A stretch of 40,254 bases of DNA from a virus (taxonomy: Duplodnaviria > Heunggongvirae > Uroviricota > Caudoviricetes), in the IMG/VR virus record IMGVR_UViG_2541047843_000009, one strand, 5' to 3'. The translations under genes were made by a program, and so were the position numbers. Positions 1 through 34,760 of this stretch are shown here, piece by piece; within the stretch, counting starts at the first letter, position 1; each line of letters begins with the position of its first letter. Below the pieces are notes generated by a model that was not told the origin of the DNA, did not search any database, and was given only the letters and a program-made list of their open reading frames with translations.

Positions 1-26
1 AAACCTGCCGTAGCAGGTTCTCTTTC

Positions 27-245
27 TCAAAAATTCATATGCCCCTGACCACCTGGCAATGGATGTGGAGGAGCAGTAGCAATCAGTGCGGGTGTCACAA
101 TAAACCGGACCACTGTTTCATGGGTAACAAAAGTGCTCCCGCAGTTAATATTTTGGCACTGGCAGTAACGCTCTTTGGTGCTTTCAGTTACTTGAAAACT
201 GCTCCTTGTGTGTGCCGCATGACCACACTTTGGACAATTCATCAT
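27..245 (-). CDS. ogr: Ogr/Delta-type zinc-finger late transcription activator
   Basis: CPKCGH...CQCQNINC four-Cys pattern; 72 aa from the ATG at 245 (the track start at 290 is a GTG); sits next to D as in P2. Confidence 0.8.
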   Translation of the reverse strand: MMNCPKCGHAAHTRSSFQVTESTKERYCQCQNINCGSTFVTHETVVRFIVTPALIATAPPHPLPGGQGHMNF

Positions 246-313
246 ATCCAGATCCCTACCTTTGCTATCAGAATCATTGTAATGATACACAAAATATCAA
301 TATTGAGAACACT

Positions 314-1414
314 TTATTCCATTTCAAGATCATCAATCTTCACTTCGAGTTCAATACTGGTCGTAAAACCATTATCCGGGCTGACGGTATGAGTCAGAGT
401 CGTAATGGTCCATTCCGCATCATCTATCGGTTGTTTAAAGCCACTAACTTTCACTGGCATTTCCGTGTAAAGATCTGCCCGCCCTTCCGCCAGTTGTAGC
501 GAGAATGACGCAACGCCGCGTTGCAGGCGTTCCCACTGCATTTTCGCTGCCCGTTCAGCGTTGCTCCGGTTGGCATAAGTGCGATTAAGTACCAGCACGT
601 TTTCATCCGTACCCACCAGGTAATCGCCCTGCTTCGCTTCCGGCTCTTTCTTCTGCTTCTTAGTTCTGCGCTTACGCTTCACCGTGGTGCTTTCTTTCTT
701 CGCAGGTTCGCGGGTATGCAACCAGCTGGCAATTACGCCCGTGTAGGCTCCGCGATCTGCCAGGGTAAATCGGTGACTGTCGCCGTCCTTGCGTGTGATA
801 GTGATCACTGGCAGAGGTTTACCAGTGGCGCTTTTGCCCTGCCCCTGCCGGATGAATAACAGATTGCCATTTTTCACCGACGCGATGGCACCGTACTGTC
901 GCGCCAGCCGCATCAGAAAACTGCCGTCACTCTCATTAGTCTGGTCTATATGCTCCACGGGCTTATCCGACAGGTCTTTACCCAGTGCCATCTTCAGCTT
1001 GTGCCGCGCGGCTATTTCCTTCACCACTTCCCCGACGGTGGTCTTATGCCACGATTTTTCACGGCGGGTATTCAGCGTTTCCCGAAAATCAGCACTTCGC
1101 GCCCGGATAGTCAGGCGGTCCGGTGCGCCAGTGTGTTCAATCTCGTCCACTGTGAATGCCCCTTTCGGGAAAAGCGGCTGCCCCTTCCAGCCCAGCGCCA
1201 GCGTAATAACCGCACCACGGCGCGGCAGCACGATTTTTCCGTCAGCGTCATCCAGCTCCAGATCAAGCTGGTCCGCTTCAAAGCCCCGGTTATCCGTCAG
1301 CGTCAAACTCATCAGGCGGTTATCCAGCACAGTGGTGATATCCCTGCCCTCAATACTGATGCTGAATGCGGGAGTTTTGTTGCCTTTGTTAAGCAGTTCA
1401 GAGCTGAAATTCAC
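314..1414 (-). CDS. D: Tail protein D (late control gene D family)
   Basis: 366 aa, position and sequence character of P2 gpD; start overlaps the U stop. Confidence 0.85.
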   Translation of the reverse strand: MNFSSELLNKGNKTPAFSISIEGRDITTVLDNRLMSLTLTDNRGFEADQLDLELDDADGKIVLPRRGAVITLALGWKGQPLFPKGAFTVDEIEHTGAPDRLTIRARSADFRETLNTRREKSWHKTTVGEVVKEIAARHKLKMALGKDLSDKPVEHIDQTNESDGSFLMRLARQYGAIASVKNGNLLFIRQGQGKSATGKPLPVITITRKDGDSHRFTLADRGAYTGVIASWLHTREPAKKESTTVKRKRRTKKQKKEPEAKQGDYLVGTDENVLVLNRTYANRSNAERAAKMQWERLQRGVASFSLQLAEGRADLYTEMPVKVSGFKQPIDDAEWTITTLTHTVSPDNGFTTSIELEVKIDDLEME

Positions 1415-1896
1415 GACAGCAGCCCTCCCACCGTTTTACTGATATCGCTTAAGGCAGACGTTGCCGTGTCCTGCAGATTATTCAGTTGCGCACTGAGATC
1501 ACCGAACATATCGGACAGGGATTCATCCACTCGTTTGAGCGACAGGGTGAACTCAATCCGGCGCGGCATACCGTCGCGGAAAAACTCCGTTTTAGTCTGA
1601 TTCAGTCCCTCAATCACATACATGCCGTAAATCGTGCCGCTGCCTTCAATCAGGGGCCATGCTTTCCCCTGTTCTGCCATCTGCTCCAGTGCCAGCAACG
1701 ACAGCCTGCCGCCTGTTATTTCCGGCATAAGAACACCGGAAAGCGTCAGCATGTCGTTTTCCGGTCCCAGAAACTGCGTGGACGGACGTCGGTTTACCCG
1801 ACTGTTTGCCGCATGTCGCCAGCTGCGTTGATACTGCAGTTCCTGATACGGAACGGTGCGCAGCATAAACACGTACAATCCCAGCACCATCATCAT
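1411..1896 (-). CDS. U: Tail protein U
   Basis: 161 aa, between T and D as in P2; 4-nt overlaps with both neighbours. Confidence 0.8.
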   Translation of the reverse strand: MMMVLGLYVFMLRTVPYQELQYQRSWRHAANSRVNRRPSTQFLGPENDMLTLSGVLMPEITGGRLSLLALEQMAEQGKAWPLIEGSGTIYGMYVIEGLNQTKTEFFRDGMPRRIEFTLSLKRVDESLSDMFGDLSAQLNNLQDTATSALSDISKTVGGLLS

Positions 1897-4800
1897 GCGT
1901 CGTATCCCCCCTGATCGCTGTAGTTACTCCTGGCTTTTGCCTTCAGCCTGCGTTCACGTTCATCAAGCTGGCGTGCCACCTCCCGCGCAATATCCTGCGC
2001 ACTTTGTCCTGGCTGCGTCTGAATGATGATCTGCGTCGGTGCCTCAATCCGTTGAACGAGCGGCACAGTGGCTGCGCGACTCACAATTGCTTCTCCACCT
2101 TTCGCGGGAAGTGCCAAGGGGTGCAACGGTGGAAGCTCTGCTGGCGCGGCAGCAACGCCCATCATTCCGGCAACAACGGCAGCCAGTGCAGCTGTATTTC
2201 TCCGGCTGGTCACATTTGCCGGGCCGTTAACAATTTCCGGCCCGTTTTCACCGACGATGCCAAACTGCCCGCGCGGGATATACCCGCCGCTGTCATACAT
2301 CCCCGCAAAGCCATATCCCCATGATGGAAAACCACCCGATGGCATCATCACTTTACCGTCTGCATTCACCGTCGCAGGTTGCTGACGCGTCACGCTTTCC
2401 GGCAGTTTTGCCTTTGCGGCCTCTTTACTGACAATGCCGAGCTTCTCCAGCAACCAGGAAACGCCGGATTTCAGGGAGTCCAGCGGATGCATGACCATAT
2501 TCAGCCCTTCCGCCAGTGCCTCCCCGAATCGCCGCCCCATTGCCGCTGCGCTCTGCAGTTCGGCAGAGGTCGACTTAACGGGCGTCAGCAGATCAGTAAA
2601 CCAGCCCCACAGCGCCTGCACTTTGTCGCCAATCCACTGGAACACGGGCTTAAGCGGTTCGAACGCTGCACTGATGGGACCTGCCGCCGCTTTGAATCCT
2701 TCCACCACGCCACCGAGAAATGCGGTGATGGGTTGCCAGTATTTCCAGACAACCAGCGCCACGCCCGCCAGTGCAGTAACCACAAGACCTATCGGACTGA
2801 GCAGAGCACCTAACAGACCAGATATGGCATACAGGGCAACGCGCAGCATCGCCAGTGGACCAGATGCCAGTACTCGCAGCACCGTGCCTGCGGCGGCCAG
2901 TCCACCGCGCAGTACCGCCAGAGGATTCATAAACATCACAGCAACAGCACGTAAACCGGATAATCCAGACCGCAAAAGTGCAACCGGCGCACCTGCTACA
3001 GTTTTCAGGACATTTCCCGTCAGTGATGCCGTGCGGCGCAAAGACGACAACGGCGCAGTAAGTAAACCTGCGGCGTTGCCCGATGAAGCAAGCCCGCGTC
3101 GCAGCAGTGCCAGTGGTGCGCCAGCCAGCCAGGACAACGCGCTGCTGGTTCGAGTTACTGCTGCCGTAACGGAAGATAACGTTTTGATACCCAACACAGA
3201 GAATCCCAGACGGATCACTGCCAGCGGCCCCAGCACTGCAGCCAGCGCCACCGCTAAGGTGCCGAGGCCGACGGTAACCGCAGCCACAACAGCCGATGCT
3301 TTCATCAGTGTGCCTGTCAGTTCCGGGTTAGCTTCCACCCAGCGACGCAACGCCCCCGTGACGCTTTTCACCGTGTACAGAATATCCATCAGCGGCTGGC
3401 GCAGCGTTTCGCCCAGGCTGCTGAAGGTGTTCTGCGCTCCGGTTTTGACCAGCAACCACTGCGCAGAAAGTGAATCCTTGTTAATGTCGGATTCTTTCTG
3501 CATGGAGCCAAGCGCATCATTGCCCGCTGTCAGTTTTAACTGACGCTGCAGTTCCGGCAGGTTGTTTGCCAGTTTCGCCGCGTCATCGCCAAACTCTTTA
3601 CCAAACAACATAGTCATGGCAGACAGGCGCTTGTCCTGCGGCAGCGCGTTTACCTTCTCCAGCACGCGCTGGATGGTTCCCATCGCATCCTTCGTCATCT
3701 GCTTTTCAATCACTTCAGGATTGAGTTTCAGCAGATTCATCCCTTCAAAGAAACTCTTGCTTTGCATGGTGGCAATGGACAATTCACGCACCATCGCGTT
3801 TGCTGCACTGGCTGCAACCTCTGGCGCAGCGCCCAGTGTCAGGAAGGTGGAACCCAGCGCCGCCGCTTTACGATAATCCAGACGGTCAGCCACACCGCCC
3901 AGACGTTGCATCACATCAATGATGTCTGCCCCTTTCGACATGGCGTTATCATCCAGATAGTTCAGCGCATCACCGAGCTGTTCAATATTGCGGGTGGGGA
4001 TTTTGTAGAGCTGGGCGATTTTCCCCAGACTTTCTGACAGTTCATCCGCTGGCAGCTCAAAGGCTGTTGCCGCCTTTGCTGCCGTACTGGCGAAGGCCAG
4101 CAGGTCACGTTTCTGATCTTCCCAGCTGTCGTCAGGGTTTGCGACGTTCATGCGCGCACCACCTTCAACCAGTGCAGCGAAGTCCACCGCACCGTTTTCC
4201 ATCGGCAACTGTTCGCTGGCAGCCTTGATGGCATCCTGCATTTCATAAAAACGTGCAGTGCGGTTGCCATTATCGTCACGCAGACCATTGACCTGCTTTG
4301 CCACACCTTTCATGGCATCTTCCATGCTGGTATAGCTTTTTACTGCCGCCATCACTGGCGCACCCATTGCCAGCCCTGCAGCCGTGGTGGTGGCTCCGGC
4401 ACCTGCAATACGATCACGCACCTCCAGCGAACGGGCATAACTGGCACGCGCTGCATTCATCCTGCGCTGAGCTTCCCCCAGTCGCTTCAGCCGCGCCTCC
4501 TGTTTCGAAAGTTCCTGGTTATAACGTGATGTTTCACGGGCTAAACGGGCAGTTGCTCCCGCATCGTCTTTCGCAGAAATTCCCGCCCGGTACAGTTCAG
4601 CACGCACAAGCGCCGTCTGCTGCTGCAGCTTTTTCTGGCGTTCTTCCAGGCGCTGAACAGCCAGCCGTTGACGGCCCAGAGCAACAACCTGACGTTGCGA
4701 AGGCGGCCCCATCGCTCCCAGTTCCTGACTGAGCAAATTTGCACGCTGGCGGGCATAGTTCAGCCTGTCGCCTAATTTCTGATTTTCTGCCTGCAGCTTT

Positions 4801-4970
4801 CGGTAGCTGTCCAGACTGCTCCCGGCCTGATCAAGCTGCTTTATTGCATCGCGGGATTTTTTGACAGCAGCAGCCAGTTCTCTTGAACTGGCCTGCGCAG
4901 ATCGAAATGGGCGGGTGAGCTTGTCAACCGCATTAAGAATGACCTGCAGACGCAGGTTGTTATCACTCAT
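1893..4970 (-). CDS. T: Tail tape measure protein
   Basis: 1025 aa; coiled-coil N-terminal part, Ala/Gly-rich hydrophobic repeats; sits between E/E' and U. Confidence 0.9.
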   Translation of the reverse strand: MSDNNLRLQVILNAVDKLTRPFRSAQASSRELAAAVKKSRDAIKQLDQAGSSLDSYRKLQAENQKLGDRLNYARQRANLLSQELGAMGPPSQRQVVALGRQRLAVQRLEERQKKLQQQTALVRAELYRAGISAKDDAGATARLARETSRYNQELSKQEARLKRLGEAQRRMNAARASYARSLEVRDRIAGAGATTTAAGLAMGAPVMAAVKSYTSMEDAMKGVAKQVNGLRDDNGNRTARFYEMQDAIKAASEQLPMENGAVDFAALVEGGARMNVANPDDSWEDQKRDLLAFASTAAKAATAFELPADELSESLGKIAQLYKIPTRNIEQLGDALNYLDDNAMSKGADIIDVMQRLGGVADRLDYRKAAALGSTFLTLGAAPEVAASAANAMVRELSIATMQSKSFFEGMNLLKLNPEVIEKQMTKDAMGTIQRVLEKVNALPQDKRLSAMTMLFGKEFGDDAAKLANNLPELQRQLKLTAGNDALGSMQKESDINKDSLSAQWLLVKTGAQNTFSSLGETLRQPLMDILYTVKSVTGALRRWVEANPELTGTLMKASAVVAAVTVGLGTLAVALAAVLGPLAVIRLGFSVLGIKTLSSVTAAVTRTSSALSWLAGAPLALLRRGLASSGNAAGLLTAPLSSLRRTASLTGNVLKTVAGAPVALLRSGLSGLRAVAVMFMNPLAVLRGGLAAAGTVLRVLASGPLAMLRVALYAISGLLGALLSPIGLVVTALAGVALVVWKYWQPITAFLGGVVEGFKAAAGPISAAFEPLKPVFQWIGDKVQALWGWFTDLLTPVKSTSAELQSAAAMGRRFGEALAEGLNMVMHPLDSLKSGVSWLLEKLGIVSKEAAKAKLPESVTRQQPATVNADGKVMMPSGGFPSWGYGFAGMYDSGGYIPRGQFGIVGENGPEIVNGPANVTSRRNTAALAAVVAGMMGVAAAPAELPPLHPLALPAKGGEAIVSRAATVPLVQRIEAPTQIIIQTQPGQSAQDIAREVARQLDERERRLKAKARSNYSDQGGYDA

Positions 4971-5142
4971 CGTTGGCCCCGCTTCTCTGAATCGCTTTAT
5001 ACCGCCATTCCAGCACTTCGGTCAGCGGCATAACGTCAGTAACGGATGGCGGCCAGTGAAAAATGGTGGCGATATCTGCCACCAGATCGTCAACCGTCAG
5101 GCTGTCGGTAAACCGGCAAGCACCGACTTCTTCAACAAAAAA
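4963..5142 (-). other. E': E' extension reached by -1 programmed frameshift at TTTTTTG (minus strand, plus coords 5136-5142); the shifted frame stays open to a TGA at 4963-4965, overlapping the T start
   Basis: Translated by hand: the -1 frame after the slippery site gives about 57 codons (VEEVGACRFTDSLTVDDLVADIATIFHWPPSVTDVMPLTEVLEWRYKAIQRSGANDE) and ends inside the first codons of T, as in P2. Confidence 0.7.
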
Positions 5143-5399
5143 GTGACAACCTCAACCGACATGGCAGTGAGATCTGCCGGGTCCATCTCTGCAATTTCCT
5201 GTGCAGTCAGTGCCGGACTGGAGATGCGGGGGATCACGGTCATCATCGCGTTTACATCCATATCCATAATGGCCTGCAGGCGTGTACCGCGCAGCGCACC
5301 GGACTGCGGTTTACGCAGCACAATTTCGGTGATTTCTGTTTTACCGCGCTTGATGGGGGTATCCAGTTGAATGGTCTTTTCAGTCTGCTTATCGCTCAT
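5097..5399 (-). CDS. E: Tail assembly chaperone E (zero-frame product)
   Basis: 100 aa immediately downstream of FII; contains the slippery heptamer near its 3' end. Confidence 0.8.
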   Translation of the reverse strand: MSDKQTEKTIQLDTPIKRGKTEITEIVLRKPQSGALRGTRLQAIMDMDVNAMMTVIPRISSPALTAQEIAEMDPADLTAMSVEVVTFLLKKSVLAGLPTA

Positions 5400-5453
5400 T
5401 TTGCTGTCCTGTCAATTGGGTTCTGGCGCGGTATCCCGCGCCGTTCAGATATA

Positions 5454-5969
5454 TCAGAGGCCGAGGGCGTTGCGGTGCGCTTCCATCAGGTCCACACCGT
5501 CCACAATTTCCACCATGTTGATAAGGTCCACTTCATAGAGCACCTCACCATTGATGGTCAGCTTCGCGTAGCTGTTGGTACTGGTCACTTTGGTGGTGTT
5601 GCTTTCGCCCGTCTTCCACTCGCCGGAATCCACTTCTTTGTGACGTCCACGCACGACAAGCTCCACGGCCTGCACTTCCCCGGTATCGTCACGCTGAATA
5701 GAGCCGGTAAAGCGCAGCTGGATGCCATCCACCGTGGCTTTACCCATCTGTTTAAACAGCAGCAATTCAGTACCACCAATGGAAAATTCTGTGTCCAGCG
5801 CACTGTCATCAAGCCCCAGATCCACATCCACCGCACCCGGCATTCCGCCGCCGCGATACTTCTCATATTTGCGGGTAAATTTCGGCAGCGTCAGCGACTC
5901 AACGATCCCCTGCCAGTTGTTCCCGTCGTTAAACAGGTTCAGGTGTTTTAATTTGCGTGGTAAAGCCAT
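5454..5969 (-). CDS. FII: Tail tube protein FII
   Basis: 171 aa directly downstream of the sheath gene. Confidence 0.85.
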   Translation of the reverse strand: MALPRKLKHLNLFNDGNNWQGIVESLTLPKFTRKYEKYRGGGMPGAVDVDLGLDDSALDTEFSIGGTELLLFKQMGKATVDGIQLRFTGSIQRDDTGEVQAVELVVRGRHKEVDSGEWKTGESNTTKVTSTNSYAKLTINGEVLYEVDLINMVEIVDGVDLMEAHRNALGL

Positions 5970-5978
5970 GTTGTCCCC

Positions 5979-7151
5979 TTACGCGCTGACCTGGCTGGCG
6001 AAATTCACCAGGTACTGATCGGTGATGCGCTGACGCAGCATCAGGTTTTCAAGTGGCGGCACTGGCGTGTAGTCGTAGTCGATGGTGAGTTTTCCGGCTT
6101 TCAGCGTGTCTTTGTCGTTCACCGACTCATCCAGCCAGCAATCACCACCAATGAGATAGCCCTGACTGACCAGGCTGCGCATTTTGGCGCGGATACCTTC
6201 GATAATGTCGCGGGCCAGCGACGGGTTAAGCGGTTTATCCACCGCCCACATGTGTGCTTCTGCCATCGTGTCCATCAGCACCTGCGCCGTGCGGGTGTAG
6301 TTTTCGAAGGCAAAGAGCGGGTCATCACTCAGGCAGCGGGAACCCCAGAAGCGGAAACCGTCTTTACGCACAAGCGTGGTGACGTCGTTCTGGTTCAGCA
6401 GACCTGCATCGGTTGCCGGGTTCTGCAGATCCCAGAACACATCTGCAGAAATTCCGGTGACACCGTTCACGCCCACGTTGGACAGGCTTTTGTGCCATCC
6501 GGTCTGCTCGTCAATTTTGGCGCGCAGACCAAGCGCACGGGCGGTGGCATATGCCGTTGCTTCGGCATTCAGCACCGTGTCCCAGCCAGTAAAGTCAGGC
6601 CAGATCAGCATCCCTTCGCGCTGGCTGAAGTTTTCGCGGTAAGTGATCGCCTCCTGCACTGTCTTGCAGCCATACGCTGACAGGTAAGCAAATCCACGCA
6701 GGCTTTGCGCCACGCTCAGCAACTCAGTAGCTACCGCCTTGGTGTCGTGGCCTGGCACGCCGAGAATGCGCGGTTTAACGCCGAGCTGTGACTGGGCAGA
6801 TAACAGGGCTTTCATACCTGTTTTTTTACCTTCAGCAGTCACTGCGCCGATGATATTGGTCGTGGTTTCGTCTTCCGTTTCACCCTGCGGCACACGCACA
6901 ACAATGGTCACGGGTTTTGCCTGGTCAGCGATGGCATCCAGCGAACGGGCCAGAGTACCTGACTCACCCGCTTTACCGCTGGCAGTCAGCACATCAGTGA
7001 TCAGCACGGGTTTATTAAGAGGAAACATTTTTGCATCGGCATCATCGCCCGTGCAGACCATACCCACGATGGCGGTGCTCACCGTGGTAATAGATCGGGT
7101 GCCTTCGTTGACTTCAACAACGCGCACCCCGTGGTGGTAATCCTGAGCCAT
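5979..7151 (-). CDS. FI: Contractile tail sheath protein FI
   Basis: 390 aa; first gene of the FI-FII-E-T-U-D block. Confidence 0.9.
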
Positions 7152-7227
7152 AGTGGCGAACCTCCTGATTGGATTAGGCTTCGCCCTATGTTGAAGTGAT
7201 TGTGCCTGACAAACAGCTAAGCGCAGT

Positions 7228-7245
7228 TGTGTCGTTATTCACACA
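7228..7245 (-). promoter_or_regulatory. Candidate Ogr-dependent late promoter element (TGT-N12-ACA) upstream of FI
   Basis: tgtgtcgttattcacaca lies 77-94 nt upstream of the FI start. Confidence 0.5.
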
Positions 7246-7293
7246 AAATAACGGTATTTGTCTGCTTGCAGGGATAATCAACATAATGCTGAT

Positions 7294-7860
7294 TCAGGGG
7301 GATTCATTGATCTTATTTGCCGGAAATTTTCTATAAATGGTAGAAACGCCTACATCAAAAATCAGTGCAATACGCTGTATTGATTCTCCGGCCTCGAGTA
7401 AACGCCCAATCTGTGCCCACTGTTCGGTGGTCAACTTAGGACGGCGTCCACCTACTCTGCCTTTGGCACGAGCTGCAGCCAGCCCTGCCCTGGTACGTTC
7501 AACTATCAGTTCGCGTTCCATTTCAGCCAGGGCACCCATGACATGAAAAAAGAAACGGCCCATTGGGGTACTGGTATCAATACTGTCAGTCAGGCTTCTG
7601 AAATTCACACCACGCTGGCGCAACTCTTCTATCAGCGTAACAAGATGCCGCATACTGCGCCCCAACCTGTCCAGCTTCCAGACAACCAGCGTGTCTCCTG
7701 CCGATAGTGTCCTGAGTAGTTTTTTCAGCCCCGGTCTGTCGGACTTAGTGCCACTGATTTTGTCCTCAAAAATCTGCTCACATCCCGCGCAGTTCAGTGC
7801 ATTACGTTGCAAATCGGTGTTCTGGTCATTTGTTGACACGCGTACATAGCCAATAAGCAT
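7294..7860 (-). CDS. Serine DNA invertase, Gin/Hin/Pin/Cin family
   Basis: N-terminal MLIGYVRVSTNDQ with the catalytic Ser, VVWKLDRLGRSM motif and C-terminal helix-turn-helix; GGGGG ribosome-binding site before the ATG at 7860. Confidence 0.9.
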   Translation of the reverse strand: MLIGYVRVSTNDQNTDLQRNALNCAGCEQIFEDKISGTKSDRPGLKKLLRTLSAGDTLVVWKLDRLGRSMRHLVTLIEELRQRGVNFRSLTDSIDTSTPMGRFFFHVMGALAEMERELIVERTRAGLAAARAKGRVGGRRPKLTTEQWAQIGRLLEAGESIQRIALIFDVGVSTIYRKFPANKINESP

Positions 7861-7928
7861 GATCATCCCCCTGAATAAAAACCGGAGATGATGCCAGTTA
7901 GCTGTTACCTCTGCATTTTCTTAAACGT

Positions 7929-7944
7929 TGGTTTAGGAGAAGGC
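7929..7944. repeat. Inversion crossover site, left inverted repeat
   Basis: ttggtttaggagaagg is the exact reverse complement of 9704-9719. Confidence 0.7.
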
Positions 7945-8343
7945 TCAGCATTGCCTGTTGGCGTACCTGTTCCGTGGCCTTCAGTCACACCGCCAACAGG
8001 CTGGCTGAAATGCAACGGTGCAGCTTTTTCTGCCGAAGAGTATCCGGAACTGGCAAAAGTTTATCCGACAAATAAATTGCCAGATTTACGCGGCGAATTC
8101 ATTCGTGGGTGGGATGATGGAAGAGGAATTGATTCAGGACGGACTCTCCTGTCTGCTCAGGACGGGAGCATTGAGGCACACGGCCATGATTACAATGGGG
8201 TCATCTATACTTCTAGCGGTCCTTCCTGGGCTAATACGACGGATGCGGGACACCGGGCATATTCGGGATTTACATCATCATATGGCGGGAGCGAAACCCG
8301 TCCACGAAATATTGCATTTAACTATATCGTGAGGGCTGCATAA
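7945..8343 (+). CDS. Silent alternative C-terminal segment of the tail fibre (expressed only after inversion)
   Basis: Ends ...RPRNIAFNYIVRAA, the receptor-binding C-terminus type of lambda Stf; has no start of its own downstream of the crossover site. Confidence 0.6.
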   Translation, partial: SALPVGVPVPWPSVTPPTGWLKCNGAAFSAEEYPELAKVYPTNKLPDLRGEFIRGWDDGRGIDSGRTLLSAQDGSIEAHGHDYNGVIYTSSGPSWANTTDAGHRAYSGFTSSYGGSETRPRNIAFNYIVRAA

Positions 8344-8945
8344 TGGATAACGCCGTATTAAATAGCGAGCTTATTGCCACGAAGGCGGGGAATATTACCG
8401 TCTATAACTATGATGGTGAGACGCGGGAATATATTTCTGCATCAACTGAATATCTTGCAGTGGGTGTCGGTATTCCAGCATATTCCTGTTTAGACGCTCC
8501 TGTTACATCTAAGGCTGGTTATACAATTTGCCGTTCTGTGGATTTAAAATCATGGGAATATGTGTCAGACCATCGCGGTGAAATCGTCTATAACACCGAA
8601 ACGGGAGATGCCAAAGAAATCACAGCACTAGGCGACTATCCCGAAAATACAACCACTATCGCCCCGTTAACGCCATACGATAAATGGGATGGTGAAAAAT
8701 GGGTGACAGATGTTGAGGCACAACACGGTGCCGCAGTAGAAGCGGCAGAAGCACAGCGCCAGTCACTGATTGATGCAGCAATGGCTTCCATCAGTCTGAT
8801 TCAACTGAAATTACAGGCCGGGCGGAAGCTGACGCAGCCAGAAAACACCCGACTTAACGCTGTGCTGGATTATATTGACGCGGTGACGGCAACAGATACC
8901 AGCACAGCGCCAGACGTCATCTGGCCTGAACTGCCGGAGGCGTAG
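8343..8945 (+). CDS. Alternative tail-fibre assembly protein (Tfa/U'-like)
   Basis: 200 aa; start overlaps the stop of the alternative fibre segment; C-terminal DTSTAPDVIWPELPEA motif. Confidence 0.75.
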   Translation: MDNAVLNSELIATKAGNITVYNYDGETREYISASTEYLAVGVGIPAYSCLDAPVTSKAGYTICRSVDLKSWEYVSDHRGEIVYNTETGDAKEITALGDYPENTTTIAPLTPYDKWDGEKWVTDVEAQHGAAVEAAEAQRQSLIDAAMASISLIQLKLQAGRKLTQPENTRLNAVLDYIDAVTATDTSTAPDVIWPELPEA

Positions 8946-9357
8946 GCCATTCAATATCTGGCGCACCGGAAGTATCGACCAGTTCCAGTGCGTCCAGATA
9001 ATCCAGCCACAAATTATATTGCGCCAGTTCCCCACCTTTCAGGCGACCAATCGCCGCTTTACCAGGCCATTGCTTACTGTTTATGTATTCGTTGACCTGA
9101 TTAATCAATTGCTGCTTTTCCAGTTCGGCTGCGGCAATTTGTTCCTCATGAGTTGGCGGTGGAATATCAATCCATGCAGGCATTCCGTCGATGACACCTC
9201 TGTATTTTCCTTCTGGTGCTTCCTTCATAAATTCGGCGGCAACAGTGTCGTCAATTTCGATTCCATCACCGGGCCATTCGCCGGATTCCTGATAAGCGAT
9301 TTTAAGCTCCACAGGGAAAAACGCATTTTTATCGGCACTGAAAATATATTTCTGCAT
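8917..9357 (-). CDS. G: Tail-fibre assembly protein (currently expressed orientation)
   Basis: 146 aa directly after H; C-terminal VDTSGAPDIEWP motif. Confidence 0.8.
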   Translation of the reverse strand: MQKYIFSADKNAFFPVELKIAYQESGEWPGDGIEIDDTVAAEFMKEAPEGKYRGVIDGMPAWIDIPPPTHEEQIAAAELEKQQLINQVNEYINSKQWPGKAAIGRLKGGELAQYNLWLDYLDALELVDTSGAPDIEWPTPPAVQAR

Positions 9358-9359
9358 TT

Positions 9360-10766
9360 CTACCGTCCTATCGAAATATAACTGAATCTGTATTGCTGTG
9401 AGATATCACTGGTTGCCACACGCCACGCTGAATTACTGATATGTTCAAAATTTACAGACAAAACCTGCGGGGCAGGATTCGACGGGTCTGACTGAACGGC
9501 ATCAGACATAACACTGACTGAAACCATCGGCTGATTAGGGAATGGTATAGGGAAGTGTCCACTGATAAAGCGGGTCGTGTTTCCTGAAAAAGTGCCAAAC
9601 TGAACAATATATCCACCTGGTAGCCTGAACCATCCCGAACCAGAAGCGAATGCTCCCATATCCGGTATCTGATTATCTCCTGTGCCCACATCCCTTTTCG
9701 CCGCTTCTCCTAAACCAAGGTATGTGAGAAGACCAGCTACATCCTTTCCACTCAAATTGGTAAGCGTATTGTCCAGCGGTTGTTTACCTGCCAGCGCATT
9801 AAGCATTGTCGTGGCAAAGTTCGGATCATTCCCCAGTGCCGCCGCCAGTTCGTTCAGTGTATCCAGTGCAGCAGGTGCAGAACCCACCATTCCTGCAATC
9901 GCCGATTTCACAAAAGCCGTAGTGGCAATCTGTGTATTGTTGACCGACTGCGCCGCCGTGGGGGCTGTTGGCGTTCCGGTGAGTGCCGGACTCGACAACG
10001 GTGCTTTTAGTGCCAGCGCATTGTTAATGGTGGTACTGAAATTCGGATCATTGTTAATGGCTGCGGCTATTTCTTTCAGCGTGTCCAGCGTGGCTGGCGC
10101 ACCATTAATAAGGGCCGTCAGTGCCGCCTGTACAAACGCAGTGGTCGCAACCTGCGTGGTATTATTCCCCGCCGCTGGCGTTGGCGCTTTGGGGGTTCCG
10201 GTAAATGTCGGGCTGGCTTTTGGCGCGTACTGTGAATGCGGGTCCGGTGCGGCAAGATGTTTTGCCATCTGATCATCCGCGTACACCTTCAGCTCCAGTG
10301 CCTTGTCATCCACATACTTGCGGGTTGCCAGCACTACAGCAGGGTCGATTTTCAGGGTGATATTGTCCGTGCTGCTGGTAATCAGCACCATGCGCACGGT
10401 CTGAGTGCGCCCGCTACCTTCAGCCAGTTGCGGCTTATAGCTTTCCGGGCAGTTGCCCACGGCAATCAATGCCCCGGACTCATCAAACAAGCCCACTTCA
10501 CGTATCCACCAACCGCCCTCGTTTTCAGGGATCACCTGTTCGGCAATAATCTGGCTGCTGTTCTGCGGGTCGATATAAAGCATATTCAGCGCAGCCCGGC
10601 GTTTCTCATTTACCAGTGCCGTCTGCTTTGCGTCCGGCGTTGGCAATACTCCACTGCCATCGCCCACCGCCATATGGGTAATTTTTAGCGGCACACCGAG
10701 CGCGGCGGCGCTGGCAAGTTTCGCCGCGCCAATATCCGTCAGCAGGGTATAAAATTTTGTGCTCAT
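9360..10766 (-). CDS. H: Tail fibre protein H (constant N-terminus, invertible C-terminus)
   Basis: 468 aa; Ala/Thr-rich repeats (TTQVATTAFV..., NDPNF...); the 3' 345 nt lie inside the invertible segment. Confidence 0.85.
   Translation of the reverse strand: MSTKFYTLLTDIGAAKLASAAALGVPLKITHMAVGDGSGVLPTPDAKQTALVNEKRRAALNMLYIDPQNSSQIIAEQVIPENEGGWWIREVGLFDESGALIAVGNCPESYKPQLAEGSGRTQTVRMVLITSSTDNITLKIDPAVVLATRKYVDDKALELKVYADDQMAKHLAAPDPHSQYAPKASPTFTGTPKAPTPAAGNNTTQVATTAFVQAALTALINGAPATLDTLKEIAAAINNDPNFSTTINNALALKAPLSSPALTGTPTAPTAAQSVNNTQIATTAFVKSAIAGMVGSAPAALDTLNELAAALGNDPNFATTMLNALAGKQPLDNTLTNLSGKDVAGLLTYLGLGEAAKRDVGTGDNQIPDMGAFASGSGWFRLPGGYIVQFGTFSGNTTRFISGHFPIPFPNQPMVSVSVMSDAVQSDPSNPAPQVLSVNFEHISNSAWRVATSDISQQYRFSYISIGR
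9704..9719. repeat. Inversion crossover site, right inverted repeat
   Basis: ccttctcctaaaccaa, reverse complement of 7929-7944, located inside the tail-fibre gene H. Confidence 0.7.
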
Positions 10767-11368
10767 GGATTCACTCTCATTGTGTCAATAACATGGACCG
10801 CCCCGCCTTCATGCGCGGTGCCACCGGAAATAATCGTTTCGTTGATATACGGATAGATCGTGATTTCTTCGCCAAGATAGCTGGCGGCTCCCACCCAATG
10901 CGGGCCGCTGGTCTGCAGATTGATGGACATGCCGATCATGTGGCGGCTACATGGTTTGGCATCGCTTATCAGTCGCTCAAGTTCCAGATAGGTATCTTCA
11001 GTGATGCCCTGGTCCTGCACGCCGATATCCAGGCGAAACGTGCCCGGTGTTTCTCCGGTCTGCCACCACTCAATAATGCGGATCAGGAATCCGAACGGCT
11101 CCACCACCCGCCGCACGGCACTGGTGGTCCCTTTATGCTGATGAATATAAAAAGCATCCTTCACCACCTGGCGCTTGACGCTTTCTGTCCAGCCCTCGTC
11201 CCAGCGATCCACAGAGAACGCCCAGGCGAGATAAGGCAGGAAACTGACCGGACAGGTTGCCGGATTCCACAAGTCACGAAGCGGCACCTGCAGATCAGAA
11301 ATCCCGCTGCAGGTTTGCGCCAGTCGGCGCTCCAGTGGTGTTGAACCCGGTGGCAGCAGACTATTCAT
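10763..11368 (-). CDS. I: Baseplate assembly protein I
   Basis: 201 aa between J and H, P2 order. Confidence 0.8.
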   Translation of the reverse strand: MNSLLPPGSTPLERRLAQTCSGISDLQVPLRDLWNPATCPVSFLPYLAWAFSVDRWDEGWTESVKRQVVKDAFYIHQHKGTTSAVRRVVEPFGFLIRIIEWWQTGETPGTFRLDIGVQDQGITEDTYLELERLISDAKPCSRHMIGMSINLQTSGPHWVGAASYLGEEITIYPYINETIISGGTAHEGGAVHVIDTMRVNP

Positions 11369-22056: not shown

Positions 22057-23466
22057 TTACTCATCTACTCTGATTTTTTGTTTTTTATTATTTTGAGTTA
22101 AGACATTTATGGTAATAGATGTATACGGATGAAAGTCAGGAACTATACTTTTAACCTCTCCATTTTCAAGAAAATGATGTGCTATTGAAGGAAATAAATC
22201 AGGATCTACAGGATATTTAGCATTAGGATTATGATACATATTTAAACCTTCTGCCCATGTTTCTGTAATATCGCCTTCTTTCACTTCAAAACTAAATGCT
22301 GCTGGATATAATGCCTCTGGGTCATGATCATGGCAGTAACCACTCCTAAATAATCTAAGGTCACTTCTTCCAAAACCAGCCAGTTTTCCCATCCGATTAA
22401 ACTTCGATATAGTACCACTATTAGAACTAAGGACGGCCGAAATATTTTCAGACTCATCCAAGAAGAAAAAGCCTGAAGGAATTTCCTTTTTCTCAAATTG
22501 ATGCGATATAATTTTCTTAGTTGCTAAACTGTAACATCCATCTTCAGATTTAACATGCTCATAGCGAATACCATAAAGATACTGCCAAAGTGCACTATGG
22601 GACCAAATCATAGAGTTTGGTTCATGAAAATCAGCAATTGCGAAAATTAAAGGATTCCCCTTAACATGTTCTAGATCCCAGTATCGAGTTTTCTTTTTCA
22701 GTTTAGAATAGAGAGAACTTCCAAATTTAATCGGCATATAATTCTCTATTTTCTCTAGCAATTCTTCCTTACTTTTAGGTTCTGATAGCATTTCAGATGA
22801 TTGATTAATATCATTCCCTGTTGGATTAACCGTTACAGCTTCAATGCAAATAGTATTACCATACTTACGTGCCACATAATCAGGGGCATTAAACTGCCTA
22901 TCTAGCCAAAAGTGTTCCTCTCGTAAATATGCGAAAAGATATAACTCCCATAGCCGGGCATCAAAACCTGTTGTCTGAAACTGCTCTATAAAATTCCCGT
23001 CGACATCCTCAAAATGATTCATCATTTCCTTGATTATCCCTGTTGCAGGCGACCAGTTCGCGTATTTACCAAATAATGAAAAATGATGATGAAGTTTATC
23101 TGGTGTAACTATAGGTGTGAATAAATCCATTGCTTTATAAGTTTCATCACCTTGTGGAAATACTTTTACGTTTAATTTAGTATGCTTCCGCATTAATTTC
23201 TTTAGTTTTGCTCGTGCAGAATTCATTTCTGAAACACTAGTAAATAGGTCAATACATCTATATCTCCCACTTAAGTCTCTTGCTAAAACAATACCGCTAT
23301 AATCTTCATCGATTTGATCCAATAATAGTGCCCCTAGCAGGAACTCTCTCGGACTACAGTACCACTCAAACTCATAGCCTAAAAGTTCAGTATTTGGCAT
23401 TCTGGTCCAATCAACAAAAGCATTAAACCTCTCTTTACTCATTTTTTTTATATCAAGAAAAGACAT
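22057..23466 (-). CDS. Hypothetical 469-aa protein; AT-rich cargo gene, candidate anti-phage defence or abortive-infection protein of unassigned family
   Basis: Long ORF in clearly AT-rich DNA between portal and cos, convergent with Q; GAGGT about 9 nt before the ATG; no Walker A motif; no family recognised. Confidence 0.7.
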   Translation of the reverse strand: MSFLDIKKMSKERFNAFVDWTRMPNTELLGYEFEWYCSPREFLLGALLLDQIDEDYSGIVLARDLSGRYRCIDLFTSVSEMNSARAKLKKLMRKHTKLNVKVFPQGDETYKAMDLFTPIVTPDKLHHHFSLFGKYANWSPATGIIKEMMNHFEDVDGNFIEQFQTTGFDARLWELYLFAYLREEHFWLDRQFNAPDYVARKYGNTICIEAVTVNPTGNDINQSSEMLSEPKSKEELLEKIENYMPIKFGSSLYSKLKKKTRYWDLEHVKGNPLIFAIADFHEPNSMIWSHSALWQYLYGIRYEHVKSEDGCYSLATKKIISHQFEKKEIPSGFFFLDESENISAVLSSNSGTISKFNRMGKLAGFGRSDLRLFRSGYCHDHDPEALYPAAFSFEVKEGDITETWAEGLNMYHNPNAKYPVDPDLFPSIAHHFLENGEVKSIVPDFHPYTSITINVLTQNNKKQKIRVDE

Positions 23467-23787: not shown

Positions 23788-24021
23788 TTAATGCAGCCAG
23801 CTGTCGTCTTCCCACACCTTCTGCATAATTTTCATCACTTGTTTTCTTTCTTCGTCCAGTTGCAGTCCGGTTAGTTCCACACCGTTAGAGCTACCTTTGC
23901 GAATGCGAATTACCGTTTTGGGATACAGGGGGCGCAGATTGCGGTAAAGCTCGGATTCAAGGGCGTCCAGGGTAGACTGGCTAATCTTCTGCTCTTTATC
24001 GATCATTATTTCAATGCGCAT
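23788..24021 (-). CDS. DinI-like protein
   Basis: 77 aa from MRIEIMIDK..., ending ...VWEDDSWLH, resembling DinI; GGTGA ribosome-binding site. Confidence 0.7.
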   Translation of the reverse strand: MRIEIMIDKEQKISQSTLDALESELYRNLRPLYPKTVIRIRKGSSNGVELTGLQLDEERKQVMKIMQKVWEDDSWLH

Positions 24022-24031
24022 AAAAGTCACC

Positions 24032-24220
24032 TCAGCTGATGACATCCATTGAGCGGTTGTATTCGTGGGTTCTGATTTTTGCCATGAGTTCATCAGTCAA
24101 TTCAGAAACCCACTGCAGAGCCAGCCCCTTCTCTTCATCACTACACTCACTAGCCGCTACAAGCTTAAGAAAAAAATCAATGCGCTGGAGCTTCAAAGAC
24201 TCCAAAAAATAGTCCTGCAT
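24032..24220 (-). CDS. Hypothetical small protein (62 aa)
   Basis: AGGAGG 4-5 nt before the ATG at 24220; the longer track ORF is probably an artefact. Confidence 0.5.
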   Translation of the reverse strand: MQDYFLESLKLQRIDFFLKLVAASECSDEEKGLALQWVSELTDELMAKIRTHEYNRSMDVIS

Positions 24221-24364: not shown

Positions 24365-26779
24365 TTAATACAGGTTCCGCCACTGATCATCTTCCTGCAA
24401 ACGCTGGTTCCGATAGAAGATACGCAGGCCTGCTCCTGACGGAATACTGCCTCCGCGAAGGAGTAAATCGACCTCTTTCTCGCTGCCATCAAATCCTCTG
24501 GACTTCAGCTCATACACGAGCTGCAGTCGCTGATGGTCTGTAATTCGCTGTTTGTAGTCTTTACGCCGTTTCGGTTTCACCAGGCGTAACCTTGCTGCCA
24601 GTTCCCGGCGCTCTTTTTTGCTCATACTGTGCAGGTAATCGTGCAACTCCTTGTCATCCATGCTGGTAATGTCCGTTCTGGGGTCCCCATCAGCTGATTT
24701 ATCTTTCTCCTGTTGGTTCAAATTTTCAGCAAGGGGACAGTTATTGCCACGAGTCCAAGGGGCGCAAGCGCCCTGGTCGGCTGCCGCCTCCTGAACGTCA
24801 ACGGCCTTACGAACCATTTTCCACTTCACGGCATGAGTGCAGATCTTGCCCTCTGCAATAGGTGACCAGATGCCATAAATACGAATGCCGTGATCGCCAT
24901 AGGCGGTCGGCTCTTCGTTGATTTCATAAGCAGTTCTGATAAGGTGATATTTACGGGGAACCAGTACGCCGCCCTGCTTCATGATGTAGGTGGCAAAACA
25001 ACCAGCATCAGCAGCAGCCAGGATTGCATCAAGGCGCGGGTTATCCAGTACCGGCGCACCTGCTTTTTTGTCACCCTGTTGCCTTGCCGCCTGACCAGCC
25101 AGCAATCGCAGTTCACGGTAAGCCTGACGCCCCGGAATGCCAAAGAAGCGGAATTGCTGAACACGATGCAGAGACGCCCAGGCATTCACGTATTCAGCGT
25201 TATCACGCAGGGATTTACCCGTTTCCTTGCTGATCTCGCCAGCCAGACCACGCCCGTCAATGTTCTTACTGATATATTTCGCGATGTAGCTTGTCGGCGT
25301 TCCTTTGCGCGGGTTAATCAACTCAGACTTAAAGCGCGGCCCCGTGTTATTGCCCAGCTCCTCGCGGTCTTCACGGATGGCAAACTTACGCAGTAATGCA
25401 GTGATGGCGCGGCGGTCTTTTTTGCGCATAAAACACAACAGGTGCCAGTGAACTGTACCGTCATGATGCGGCTCAGCCACCCGCACGCCATACCAGCGCA
25501 ATCCGGCTTTGTGCATCGCCTTACGAAATGCAGCAAACATGCCGACCAAATAATCACTGCTTTGTCTTACCGTCGCATTTGTCCAGTTCGGGTTGGGTCT
25601 GCCGTTATTTAGCGTGGAATGGAAACGTGACGGACAGGTGATGGTGTAGAAAACGGCGCAGTCACCGCGCATTTCCGCGATAAGTTCCAGACCTTTAACA
25701 CAGGCCATCATCTCATTGCGGCGATGCGCAGGGTTGCTGCTGCTGGCGTTTACCACATCCTCCATGTCCAGCGTGTCGCCGTCTTCGTTCACCAGTTCAT
25801 GAGAACGGAAAAACTCCAGCGACTTACGGCGCTGCTCACGTTTATGCATCACGGCTTCATAGCTGACATAAGGAGATGCTTTTTTGCTGACCAGGCAGAC
25901 AGCGCGCAACTGCTCTTCCCGCCATTCGCAACGCATCTTCCATAATTTCCGGTACCACCAGTCAGCGCACAACATACGCGCCAGCGAACCCGGAATGAGT
26001 TCATAGGGCACGGGTTTACGGCGGTTTCTTTTCCGACGGAGTTGCTCAAACGCAGGCGGGATAACATCCAGACGCAGGGTTTCCGCTGCCACCTTTTCCC
26101 ATGTCTTGCGGATTTCTTCTGGCTTAACGTCATCGGTGGCATACAAATCACCACAAGCTGCATCAAGGCACATGCTCATATGCGCAGCGACAAGGGTAGA
26201 CAGGCGCTTCACCTGATCCTGACTCATTTCAGGCAGGATAAGCAGGCCATCCAGCCCTTCATGGCTTGCCATAAAGCGAAAAGAAGCGGATAGCTGACTG
26301 TCGCGTACATGCTCCAGTCGTTCCAGACATGGCTTAATCGTCTCACGCAAATAGCGGGAATAAGCCTTTGGCCTGCCCAGGCTGCTGAAGTATTCAATAC
26401 GTTGCATCAGCGGCTTGCTGATATGGGAAGGCTGGGCATTGACGTCCGCCAGAATGACCATATCTGGATTAAAACGCTGCTGCTCATGCGCCAGCTTTGC
26501 CCGACTAATGAGCTTATCCTGCTCCATTTCGCGCTGGACAGGATCACGGGATTCATTAAAGAAATAACGCTCCCAGACCTGATCACTCAGTGCCTCGCGG
26601 CGCAGCTGTTCCTGCTCGTTATCGGCAGCGTACAGAGTGATCAGGTTTGAAAGCGCAGAAACCGGCGCAACTTCCGCCGGGTCCAGATAAGGGTTAATGG
26701 CCTTTTTCGGGCTGTTCCATGAGAACGATGCGGCAGCCTCGTTAAAGCCGCAGCAGTTGTTCATATCGGCATGGCTCAT
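24365..26779 (-). CDS. A: Replication initiation endonuclease A (rolling-circle, HUH type)
   Basis: 804 aa; [10 protein letters not shown] motif; ATGA overlap with the upstream methylase gene. Confidence 0.9.
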
Positions 26780-27633
26780 GCACGTACTCCGTACACGGCA
26801 GAACTATCCACGCCACGCGAATAATCAAATCCCACCCAGCAGCGCGGCCCGGAAACAGCAATGATTTCTGTTGCTGATTTACCCTCGCCAGCTGCCACAC
26901 CGATGCTGCGTTTTGCCTTGATGTAGTGGTGAGTAAAATTGCGATACAGCGAACGGATCAGGGATGTGTCACTGTTAGAAACAATGACCGGATGTCCTTC
27001 TGATGACCGATGTTCAAGAACAGATGCCAGGTGATACTGGTCATCTTCAGTGAAACCATCAGTGTGATAGCCGGAAAACGTACCGTCATACGGCGGATCG
27101 CAATACACCACATCCCCCGCCTTCAACATCGCCAGCGTTTCATCAAAGCTGGCGCAGATAAACGTTGCTCGCTGGGCCTTTTCTGCAAATGCGCGAATTT
27201 CTTTTTCAGGGAAATACGGATTTTTATAATTACCGTAGGGAATGTTGAAATGCCCGCTCTTGTTATAGCGACATAAACCACGGTAACCGTGACGATTGAG
27301 ATACAGGAAATATACCGCTTTCATGAAATCAGTAATTTCAGTGGAGTAATTAAACTCCTGCCTTATGTTGTAATAAGCCACCTCCCTGTTTGCGATCTCA
27401 AATAAAACTCTGGCGCGAGATATAAACGATTCACAATCAGCAGCAACCTTTTTATAGAGGTTGATTAAATCAGGATTAATATCCGCAACCAGATAGCTGG
27501 GGTAATCCGTCTCCATCATCACAGCACAGGAACCCGCGAAAGGTTCAACCAGTCGCGGGCCAGCAGGAAGGTGTTTTTTCAGTTCGGACATAATGGCGGT
27601 TTTATTTCCCGCCCATTTCAGGATGGTGCTCAT
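26776..27633 (-). CDS. DNA N6-adenine methyltransferase, Dam-like
   Basis: DPPY catalytic motif (VVYCDPPY) and N-terminal AdoMet-binding region (EPFAGSCAV); start taken at [11 protein letters not shown]. Confidence 0.85.
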
Positions 27634-27857
27634 ACAGCACCTCCGTTGTAATGTTTGCCTTTCAGCTCTGCGATTTCCTGACAGGTAATGCAAAGCTGCA
27701 CCCCCGGAATGGCACGGCGGCGTGCTGGCGGAATTGGCGCTTCACACTCAACGCAAAGCACGCGGGACACGCCCGGCGTTTTGGCACGGGCAGCACGGAT
27801 ATGACGTTGGCGTTCTTCTTCAACTCGCTGCTGTACGAGATCCATTGCATCAGCCAT
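27630..27857 (-). CDS. TraR/DksA-family C4 zinc-finger protein
   Basis: CVECEAPIP...CITCQ; 75 aa; translationally coupled to both neighbours. Confidence 0.75.
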   Translation of the reverse strand: MADAMDLVQQRVEEERQRHIRAARAKTPGVSRVLCVECEAPIPPARRRAIPGVQLCITCQEIAELKGKHYNGGAV

Positions 27858-34417: not shown

Positions 34418-34476
34418 TTGCTTAACCCTATAAAAAACTTTAGCAAACTCTACAATATAGCCCCTCTTTAGTCTAA

Positions 34477-34760
34477 TCAGGCGCTGTATCCTGAAATCGG
34501 GTACCGATAATATCCCTCCTGCAGCCATGTGTTGGTGTTAACAAGATACTGTGTATCAATTGAATCCGTCAGACTGCAAAAGTTGATACCTCTTTCGCGC
34601 AGTTCCTCCACCAGCACGACAAGATGCCTCATACTGCGCCTCAGTCGGTCCAGTTTCCAGACCACCAGAGTGTCACCTGCCGATAATGTCCTGAGAAATT
34701 TTTTAGCCCGGGTCTTTCGGGCGTTGTAACGCTGATTTTATCTTCAAAATCAGCGCGCAT
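34477..34760 (-). pseudogene. Truncated, frameshifted Pin-type DNA invertase remnant
   Basis: MVWKLDRLRRSMRHLVVLVEELRERGINFCSLTDSIDT matches the central part of the invertase at 7294-7860; DNA similarity continues upstream out of frame; the C-terminal helix-turn-helix half is missing. Confidence 0.7.

Follow-up and report, generated by a model that had tools for sequence, protein, structure and literature searches.

A predicted two-state tail-fibre switch of the Din invertase family in a P2-like Escherichia coli prophage

When a DNA invertase gene in a prophage is flanked on one side by the tail sheath gene FI and on the other by the tail-fibre genes, the question arises of whether that prophage is able to exchange the receptor-binding end of its tail fibre. 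The locus considered here lies within a stretch of 40,254 nucleotides of viral DNA (the window), and the module that it contains very probably constitutes a two-state Din-family (Pin/Gin/Cin/Hin-type) invertible tail-fibre switch in a P2-like (Peduoviridae) E. coli prophage (Table 1). Prophages of this kind are recognized by the order of their late genes, V-W-J-I-H-(G)-[slot]-FI-FII-E-T-U-D-ogr, by gpA, and by a P2-type capsid, portal, and terminase; the Pfam domains found in the window include Tail_P2_I, Phage_tail_fib, the sheath domains, and Phage_GPA, and the same assignment comes from the RefSeq annotation of a 99.9% identical prophage. An earlier note on this DNA had placed the module in the Z/fun slot of P2, and this placement agrees with the P2 record, in which G and FI flank fun(Z), and with the description of this slot as a hotspot of P2-like phages that often encodes a DNA invertase and in which the adjacent genes are inverted (bioRxiv 10.1101/2024.10.15.618418, 2024 preprint).

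Table 1. Positions in the window of the features of the tail-fibre module and of its neighbours.
Feature	Position	Strand	Size or sequence	Domains and remarks
FI tail sheath gene	5979..7151	-		Pfam Phage_sheath_1, Phage_sheath_1C, Gp18_domIII_N; left neighbour of the module
Serine DNA invertase, Din family (Pin/Gin-type)	7294..7860	-	188 aa	Pfam Resolvase and HTH_7
Left crossover site, invertase-proximal	7916..7941	.	26 bp, TTTTCTTAAACG TT GGTTTAGGAGAA	core 7928-7929
Silent alternative fibre C-terminus, collar-domain, StfE'-like	7930..8343	+		Pfam Collar, E=1.1e-14; ends ...NIAFNYIVRAA
TfaE-like tail fibre assembly chaperone	8343..8945	+	200 aa	Pfam Caudo_TAP, E=7e-32; cognate of the silent cassette
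TfaP-like tail fibre assembly chaperone	8917..9357	-	146 aa	Pfam Caudo_TAP, E=5e-33
Variable C-terminal part of H, now fused	9360..9716	-		Pfam Gp53-like_C, H residues 381-468
Right crossover site, inside H	9705..9730	.	26 bp, TTCTCCTAAACC AA GGTATGTGAGAA	core 9717-9718
Constant N-terminal part of H	9717..10766	-	350 codons	Pfam Phage_tail_fib, residues 1-150
Baseplate/tail gene I	10763..11368	-		Pfam Tail_P2_I, E=7e-55; upstream of H, transcriptional entry to H

The invertase is encoded by an open reading frame spanning 7294-7866 on the minus strand, with FI on one side and the fibre genes, including H, on the other, as had been described earlier. A start at 7866 is possible; the ATG at 7860 is the likely one, giving a protein of 188 residues and matching the annotation of the gene in relatives, where it measures 567 nt. 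The Resolvase domain (residues 5-137, E=2.9e-53) is followed by an HTH_7 domain (residues 140-183, E=6.4e-16), the structure of Gin (PDB 3UJ3) aligns with the protein without gaps across residues 1-184 (E=4e-92), and Hin's DNA-binding domain (1HCR) matches residues 141-185 (E=2.5e-8). The matches from a search of NCBIfam were all below threshold, and the serine recombinase equivalogs concerned are unrelated. The earlier note had called the module Gin-type; the nearest characterized invertase is PinE of e14 (86% amino acid identity) and not Gin of Mu (75%). The protein carries the nucleophile Ser9, its MLIGYVRVST and KLDRLGRS motifs are identical to those of Gin, and these motifs align with S10 and the D67/R68/R71 region of gamma-delta resolvase; the invertase is intact, its catalytic apparatus included. 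Residues Q151, R154, and L155 of Hin, together with basic residues at positions 47, 48, and 51, are reported to be conserved only in Fis/enhancer-dependent invertases (PMC3798978), and their counterparts Q150/R153/L154 and K46/K47/R50 (Gin numbering, from alignment) are present in the window's protein.

A search for inverted repeats returned two arms at 7916-7942 and 9704-9730 (27 nt, 81% complementary), containing a perfect repeat of 15 bp, TTGGTTTAGGAGAAG, at 7928-7942 (+) and 9704-9718 (-). The earlier note had given repeats of 16 bp at 7929-7944 and 9704-9719, of which the right-hand coordinates stand, while the left-hand ones are shifted by 1-2 nt and the perfect repeat is 1 bp shorter. 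A chance origin of the repeat is ruled out by a shuffle test, in which zero 15-bp repeats are expected across 100 dinucleotide-preserving shuffles. The two 26-bp sites are inverted relative to each other and share a 12-2-12 layout, which is also that of Mu gix and e14 pix; each matches a palindromic consensus at 21/24 positions, and their TT and AA cores are identical once inverted, with strand exchange at the left site probably taking place at its core. The right site corresponds to codons 346-354 of the 468 codons of H, in agreement with the earlier claim that the right repeat lies within this gene, and encodes ..LLTYLGLGE.. on the minus strand. No further crossover site scoring at least 17/24 was found in the 40-kb window besides these two, and the window does not fit a multiple-inversion system of the shufflon or Min type, in which there are more than two crossover sites and hence more than two variants.

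Between the sites lies a segment of 1.79 kb, close to the 1.8 kb first proposed, that holds two alternative fibre C-termini, each paired with its own assembly chaperone. The silent C-terminus, which had already been recognized by its ...NIAFNYIVRAA end, is called as an open reading frame at 7888-8343 (+) because an ATG falls outside the segment; this collar-domain cassette is 62% identical to stfE' of e14, and the 200-residue chaperone that accompanies it is 85.5% identical to TfaE. The 146-residue chaperone is 56% identical to TfaP and runs in the same direction as H in the present state. The two Caudo_TAP genes are convergent, as had been noted, and overlap by 29 bp. H in its present form (9360-10766, minus strand, 468 aa) consists of a constant part that is collinear in all relatives, in either orientation of the segment, and of a variable part that falls within the block inverted in E. 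coli MSB1_4I. Simulated inversion of the segment produces an in-frame, open H' of 487 aa ending in NIAFNYIVRAA. No sign of a diversity-generating retroelement (DGR) or other diversification mechanism was seen in the module, since every open reading frame in it is accounted for.

The strongest evidence for the switch is comparative and comes from MSB1_4I: the copy of the prophage in that strain is 99.9-100% identical across 32 kb and has precisely this segment (7925-9718) inverted, with the breaks at the two sites. Identity reaches 100% in the flank at 1-7942, 99.94% in the inverted segment, and 99.93% across 9704-32439, and a synthetic flipped junction is present in MSB1_4I at 100% identity. 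Phage 500465-1, classified in the genus Wadgaonvirus of the Peduoviridae, and Klebsiella phage KP12 are likewise flipped with identical breakpoints, and homology in the flipped relatives breaks at 7925-7942 on the left and at 9704-9721 on the right. Both orientations are common in relatives: at a coverage of at least 80%, 365 E. coli genomes contain the flipped junction and 37 the junction as it stands in the window, and among 80 IMG/VR loci, 31 have the collar cassette in the silent position and 21 in the expressed one. The intact invertase, the 12-2-12 sites, the in-frame H', and the flipped MSB1_4I prophage together bear out the earlier proposal that site-specific inversion swaps the C-terminus of the fibre.

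The two arrangements might instead have arisen through RecA-dependent recombination between the repeats, or through horizontal replacement of cassettes, rather than through inversion catalyzed by the invertase. Cassettes clearly do move horizontally, as seen in Salmonella phage MET_P1_103_31, where the interior of the segment is 94.7% identical, the backbone is 66-79% identical, and identity jumps sharply at the right site, and the IMG/VR loci show cassettes in mosaic combinations. However, the perfect repeat is merely 15 bp, a length too short for efficient RecA recombination, the breakpoints are canonical 26-bp Din sites adjoining an intact invertase that is 86% identical to PinE, and what separates the isogenic pair is a clean inversion (1 mismatch over 1794 bp) rather than a replacement, all of which makes such an origin extremely improbable. 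A further reading, hinted at by the jump in identity at the right site, is that the segment serves as an exchangeable cassette between diverged Peduoviridae backbones, its transfer being mediated or delimited by the Din sites through an invertase-catalyzed or site-templated swap between co-resident prophages. This is considered unlikely; if it were true, the switch would also be a portal for gaining new receptor-binding modules.

Inversion by the invertase would begin with its binding as dimers to the two inverted 26-bp sites. If Hin and Gin are a guide, the dimers would next synapse on an enhancer that is bound by Fis and located in the 5' portion of the gene for the invertase. All four strands would then be cut at the 2-bp TT/AA core, half of the tetramer would rotate by 180 degrees, and religation would leave the 1.79-kb segment at 7929-9717 inverted. 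Transcription from the late operon, and translation, would enter through the 350 constant codons of H, so that expression would be limited to the cassette co-oriented with H: the gp53-like C-terminus and the 146-residue chaperone in the state of the window, and the collar-domain C-terminus with the 200-residue TfaE-like chaperone in the inverted state. The particles released from a population of lysogens would thus be of two receptor specificities. Host-range switching by such a swap of tips, as envisaged in the earlier note, may be expected from analogy with the known systems, as may dependence on Fis and the rate of switching.

A cis-acting recombinational enhancer of this kind would comprise a pair of Fis sites within the 5' portion of the gene, some 100 bp away from the closer of the crossover sites. 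Two G-N13-C cores are conserved with gin and pinE, at nucleotides 22-36 and 71-85 of the gene, where they overlap conserved codons; they lie 49 bp apart, and the core at nucleotides 22-36 is 97 bp from the crossover core. The spacing in the Hin enhancer is 48 bp. A scan of the 5' end of the invertase gene with a Fis consensus (GNTYAAWWWTTRANC) gave no match here and two in gin, and is uninformative, while identity to gin at third codon positions along the gene revealed no clear enhancer footprint. Across 72 unique homologues, codons 1-15 have the least synonymous diversity (pi3 of 0.08-0.12, compared with 0.2-0.4 elsewhere), a dip that is inseparable from constraint on translation start. Taken with the conserved G-N13-C cores, this dip is suggestive only as a trace of a Fis enhancer. 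When promoters and terminators were sought around the module by consensus, no signal exceeded what shuffled sequences would give.

These signals bear on whether the switch might be a fossil, invertible in an ancestor and now locked in this prophage, for instance because the promoter of the invertase is weak or silent or the enhancer has been lost, such that the gp53-like fibre alone is made. The consensus scan picked up no sigma-70-like promoter upstream of the invertase, the enhancer is not demonstrable from sequence, and some relatives have decayed, with a frameshifted invertase in p13P477T-2 and an IS1 element within the module of CFSAN051542. Even so, a locked state is very unlikely, given that the invertase reading frame is intact, as are the two sites, the two cassettes, and the two chaperones, and that a near-identical prophage stands in the opposite orientation; with only about 10 substitutions in 32 kb between the two, inversion must have been very recent in this lineage.

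The class of system to which this probable switch belongs is already published, in the e14 P segment, the Mu G segment, the inversions of P2-like prophages in EPEC, and the 2024 preprint on the Z/fun slot. Biologically, it would be one further case of a well-understood bet-hedging host-range switch that makes no open question newly testable, and its practical value is confined to annotation, where it indicates which fibre the prophage currently expresses. The "phage tail protein" called at 7888-8343 would be read as a silent cassette and not as a stand-alone gene, and assemblies of the region as depicting one of two population states.

The P segment of e14 in E. coli K-12 (stfP-tfaP / tfaE-stfE'-pinE), whose inversion has been shown experimentally (PMC4272514), shares its layout with the module, including a 29-bp overlap between convergent chaperone genes, a silent C-terminal cassette beside the invertase, and a TT/AA core. 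Its pinE-proximal site, TTTTCATAAACG TT GGTTTGGGAGAA, is almost identical to the left site of the window, TTTTCTTAAACG TT GGTTTAGGAGAA. Conversely, e14 is lambdoid and defective, and its fibre gene is truncated, whereas the window holds an apparently complete P2-like prophage with a full-length P2-type H, and the second cassette of the window differs from that of e14 in being gp53-like. The Mu G segment follows the same logic, with Sc/Sv-U alternating with Sv'-U' and a fibre gene that contains one of the crossover sites, and Mu gix, TTATCCAAAACC TC GGTTTACAGGAA, has the 26-bp architecture of the window sites. It differs in its TC/GA core (TT/AA in the window), its length of 3 kb, its much longer variable parts, and its phage backbone, and the Mu fibre cassettes have no detectable similarity to those of the window, save for a weak chaperone match.

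In the P2-like prophages of EPEC E2348/69, coexisting orientations of tail-fibre loci have been measured by sequencing (Goldberg et al., 2014, PMC4272514), and one of these loci has three repeats and four variants (PMC4272514), compared with the two sites of the window. As described, the EPEC loci agree with the module in phage family, in genomic slot, and in mechanism. The Din subfamily, whose serine invertases depend on Fis and an enhancer, also includes the Salmonella Hin/hix flagellar switch, the P1 Cin/C segment, and p15B Min. Hin flips a promoter, whereas the switch in the window would flip a coding cassette, and Min carries out multiple inversions among six sites. A few relatives (L038, L042, and L053) carry 3-4 crossover sites.

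The evidence best supports reading the module as a Din-family invertible tail-fibre switch of the textbook kind, at an already known site in the prophage, which is P2-like and carries the module in its minus-strand late tail operon. P2 itself has fun(Z) between G and FI according to its record; here that slot is filled by the invertase together with the second cassette and its chaperone, as the earlier note had proposed. The arrangement is already described in the literature, and the prophage is already in RefSeq. Coexisting orientations have been measured in two P2-like prophages of EPEC E2348/69 and in e14 (Goldberg et al., 2014; PMC4272514), and a 2024 phage-hotspot preprint reports that the Z/fun hotspot of P2-like phages often encodes a DNA invertase with adjacent genes inverted (10.1101/2024.10.15.618418). 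The P segment of e14 is homologous to the segment studied here, with TfaE 85.5% and the StfE'-like cassette 62% identical.

Features of the tail operon and its invertible segment
Feature	Coordinates	Strand	Basis or remarks
Tape measure	1893-4970	-	Gene order, Pfam
E	5097-5399	-	Gene order, Pfam
FII	5454-5969	-	Gene order, Pfam
FI sheath	5979-7151	-	Gene order, Pfam
Module	between FI and H		Gene order, Pfam
DNA invertase ORF	7294-7866	-	Resolvase and HTH_7 domains (Pfam); between FI and H
Collar-domain fibre C-terminus, ORF	7888-8343	+	Inside repeats; ends NIAFNYIVRAA
Left site	7916-7941		TTTTCTTAAACG TT GGTTTAGGAGAA
Caudo_TAP chaperone, 200 aa	8343-8945	+	Inside repeats
Caudo_TAP chaperone, 146 aa	8917-9357	-	Inside repeats; convergent to the 200-aa one
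gp53-like C-terminal domain		-	Inside repeats; last 118 codons of H
H	9360-10766	-	Gene order, Pfam
Right site	9705-9730		TTCTCCTAAACC AA GGTATGTGAGAA
I	10763-11368	-	Gene order, Pfam
J, W, V	beyond I, in that order	-	Gene order, Pfam

The proposed site-specific inversion is borne out by the same prophage in E. coli MSB1_4I (NZ_LR898874.1), which aligns collinearly with window 1-7942 (100%) and 9704-32439 (99.93%) and on the opposite strand with 7925-9718 (99.94%), the blocks overlapping precisely at both crossover sites. A synthetic flipped right junction finds a match of 100% identity in MSB1_4I. The segment is flipped at the same breakpoints in phage 500465-1, whose flanks are 99.6% identical, and in Klebsiella phage KP12; APEC-O117H42 and p13P477T-2 have the orientation of the window. 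The flipped junction was detected in 365 E. coli genomes (at least 80% coverage) and the as-is junction in 37; cassette diversity confounds these numbers, which should not be taken as switching frequencies. Of 80 IMG/VR contigs whose invertase is 86-100% identical, nearly all have two sites, one of which precedes the invertase ATG by ~81 bp; 31 of the contigs hold the collar-type cassette in its silent state and 21 have it joined to H. Decayed modules also occur: in p13P477T-2 (L003, CP019275.1), the invertase is frameshifted into two ORFs, and the H31 locus (CFSAN051542) holds an IS1A inside the module. Both are presumably locked.

The two convergent chaperone genes, the NIAFNYIVRAA C-terminus and the H-internal right repeat described from the sequence are all present. 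H is at present a 468-aa protein (...LLTYLGLGEAAKRD...), followed by the 146-aa chaperone. Simulated joining of its constant part (10766 to 9717) to 7930-8343 gives an open, in-frame H' of 487 aa (...LLTYLGLGEGSALPVGVPVPWP...NIAFNYIVRAA), with a TfaE-like chaperone gene overlapping its stop codon by one base. The late operon can reach only the cassette co-oriented with H, and the opposite one lacks a constant part. The silent cassette resembles a gene through the ATG at 7888, which lies outside the segment; in either state, the silent cassette takes up an outside ATG of this kind, and a second example is found in locus L007 (3332-3730). In RefSeq, orientation decides whether the silent copy is listed as a separate "phage tail protein" or "gp53-like domain-containing protein"; in invertible modules, such a stand-alone gene call is probably an artefact of annotation. 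An 18-nt inverted repeat within the segment (8864-8881/8990-9007, 89% complementary) is read as arising from a C-terminal motif common to both convergent chaperones (..LDYIDA../..LDYLDA..).

An inverted-repeat search of the window returned arms at 7916-7942 and 9704-9730. The 16-bp repeats previously reported do exist, with left coordinates 1-2 nt off and a perfect core (TTGGTTTAGGAGAAG) of 15 bp rather than 16, at 7928-7942(+) and 9704-9718(-) and nowhere else in the 40-kb window; none is expected by chance (100 shuffles). Each repeat forms the inner portion of a site with 12-2-12 architecture, 26 bp in length. Between the two sites, the inner halves are exact reverse complements, the outer halves are unlike each other, and the 2-bp cores are identical when orientation is considered. 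The Mu gix site, taken from the annotated G-segment boundaries of the Mu record, reads TTATCCAAAACC TC GGTTTACAGGAA, and those of e14 read CTCTCGAAAACC TT GGTTTGGGAGAA and TTCTCCCAAACC AA CGTTTATGAAAA, the invertase-proximal one being almost the same as its counterpart here. A shufflon-like system is ruled out, as a palindromic-consensus scan of the whole window found no further site reaching at least 17 of 24 positions; the two sites alone imply a two-state switch. Three IMG/VR contigs (L038, L042 and L053), in which the invertase is 97% identical, contain 3-4 crossover sites, with cassettes that look duplicated or additional; they may undergo multiple inversions, as reported for a P2-like locus of EPEC with three repeats.

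The invertase probably starts at the ATG at 7860, giving a predicted 188 aa, since relatives are annotated as 567-nt genes. Over residues 1-184 it aligns without gaps to Mu Gin (PDB 3UJ3; E=4e-92), and the match takes in the nucleophile Ser9 and the KLDRLGRS motif. The "Gin-type" label is right as to the Din subfamily, but at 86% identity to PinE of e14 versus 75% to Gin, "Pin-type" is more exact. Hin residues Q151, R154, and L155 and basic residues 47, 48, and 51 are conserved solely in Fis/enhancer-dependent invertases (McLean et al., PMC3798978); their equivalents by the Gin alignment are Q150, R153, L154, K46, K47, and R50. The DNA enhancer itself is putative here. A Fis consensus scan of the invertase gene gave no match. 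Two G-N13-C cores (gene nt 22-36 and 71-85) are common to this gene, pinE and gin, both overlapping conserved codons. A distance of 97 bp separates the first of them from the crossover core, close to the ~100 bp given for Hin (PMC3798978). Synonymous diversity across 72 unique homologues is at its minimum at codons 1-15.

Horizontal exchange of fibre modules has long been known, and the mosaicism seen on alignment fits it. Compared with Salmonella phage MET_P1_103_31 (a Peduovirus), identity is 66-79% in the backbone (69% in the sheath, 79% in the invertase, 66-70% in the constant part of H) and 94.7% in the segment interior (8292-9730), whose relative orientation there is the opposite one. 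The distal collar-cassette stretch ~8121-8292 (+) is identical in MSB1_4I and IMG/VR locus L043 and does not align with most relatives (APEC-O117H42, p13P477T-2, phage 500465-1, MET_P1_103_31); this hypervariable stretch is presumably the receptor-binding tip. Participation of the crossover sites themselves in such exchange has a low probability.

The prophage of MSB1_4I is homologous up to ~32439, and in that strain it has another chromosomal context, adjoining ypjA. Just past the prophage end lies an RnlB antitoxin and RnlA (RNase LS) toxin pair (32992-34528, -), and beyond the prophage a decayed second module comprises a Din-type invertase fragment (residues 46-96, 86% to the intact one) and a C-terminal tail fibre assembly protein fragment (34552-34704 and 34821-34928, both -). 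No crossover sites were detected near it, and no trans target for the intact invertase is obvious here. Lambdoid tail genes at 35535-40239 (-), which encode a side tail fibre containing phage_tail_N and the tip-attachment protein J, indicate that a second prophage or remnant abuts the region. Within the prophage, a 222-aa ORF adjoining the integrase (31485-32153, +), hypothetical in the MSB1_4I annotation and matching nothing in Pfam or PADLOC, may be cargo at the prophage end. The P2 old/tin hotspot, between the portal gene and gpA, holds a low-GC island (GC 0.35-0.42 vs ~0.55) with a 469-aa gene (22057-23466, -) that lacks a Pfam match but in PADLOC matches PD-T7-1, an anti-phage defence protein, over the full length (E=1.3e-196). 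The prophage also encodes a D12-class Dam-type adenine methyltransferase (26776-27693, -; orphan MTase in PADLOC) and a DinI-like protein (23788-24093, -).
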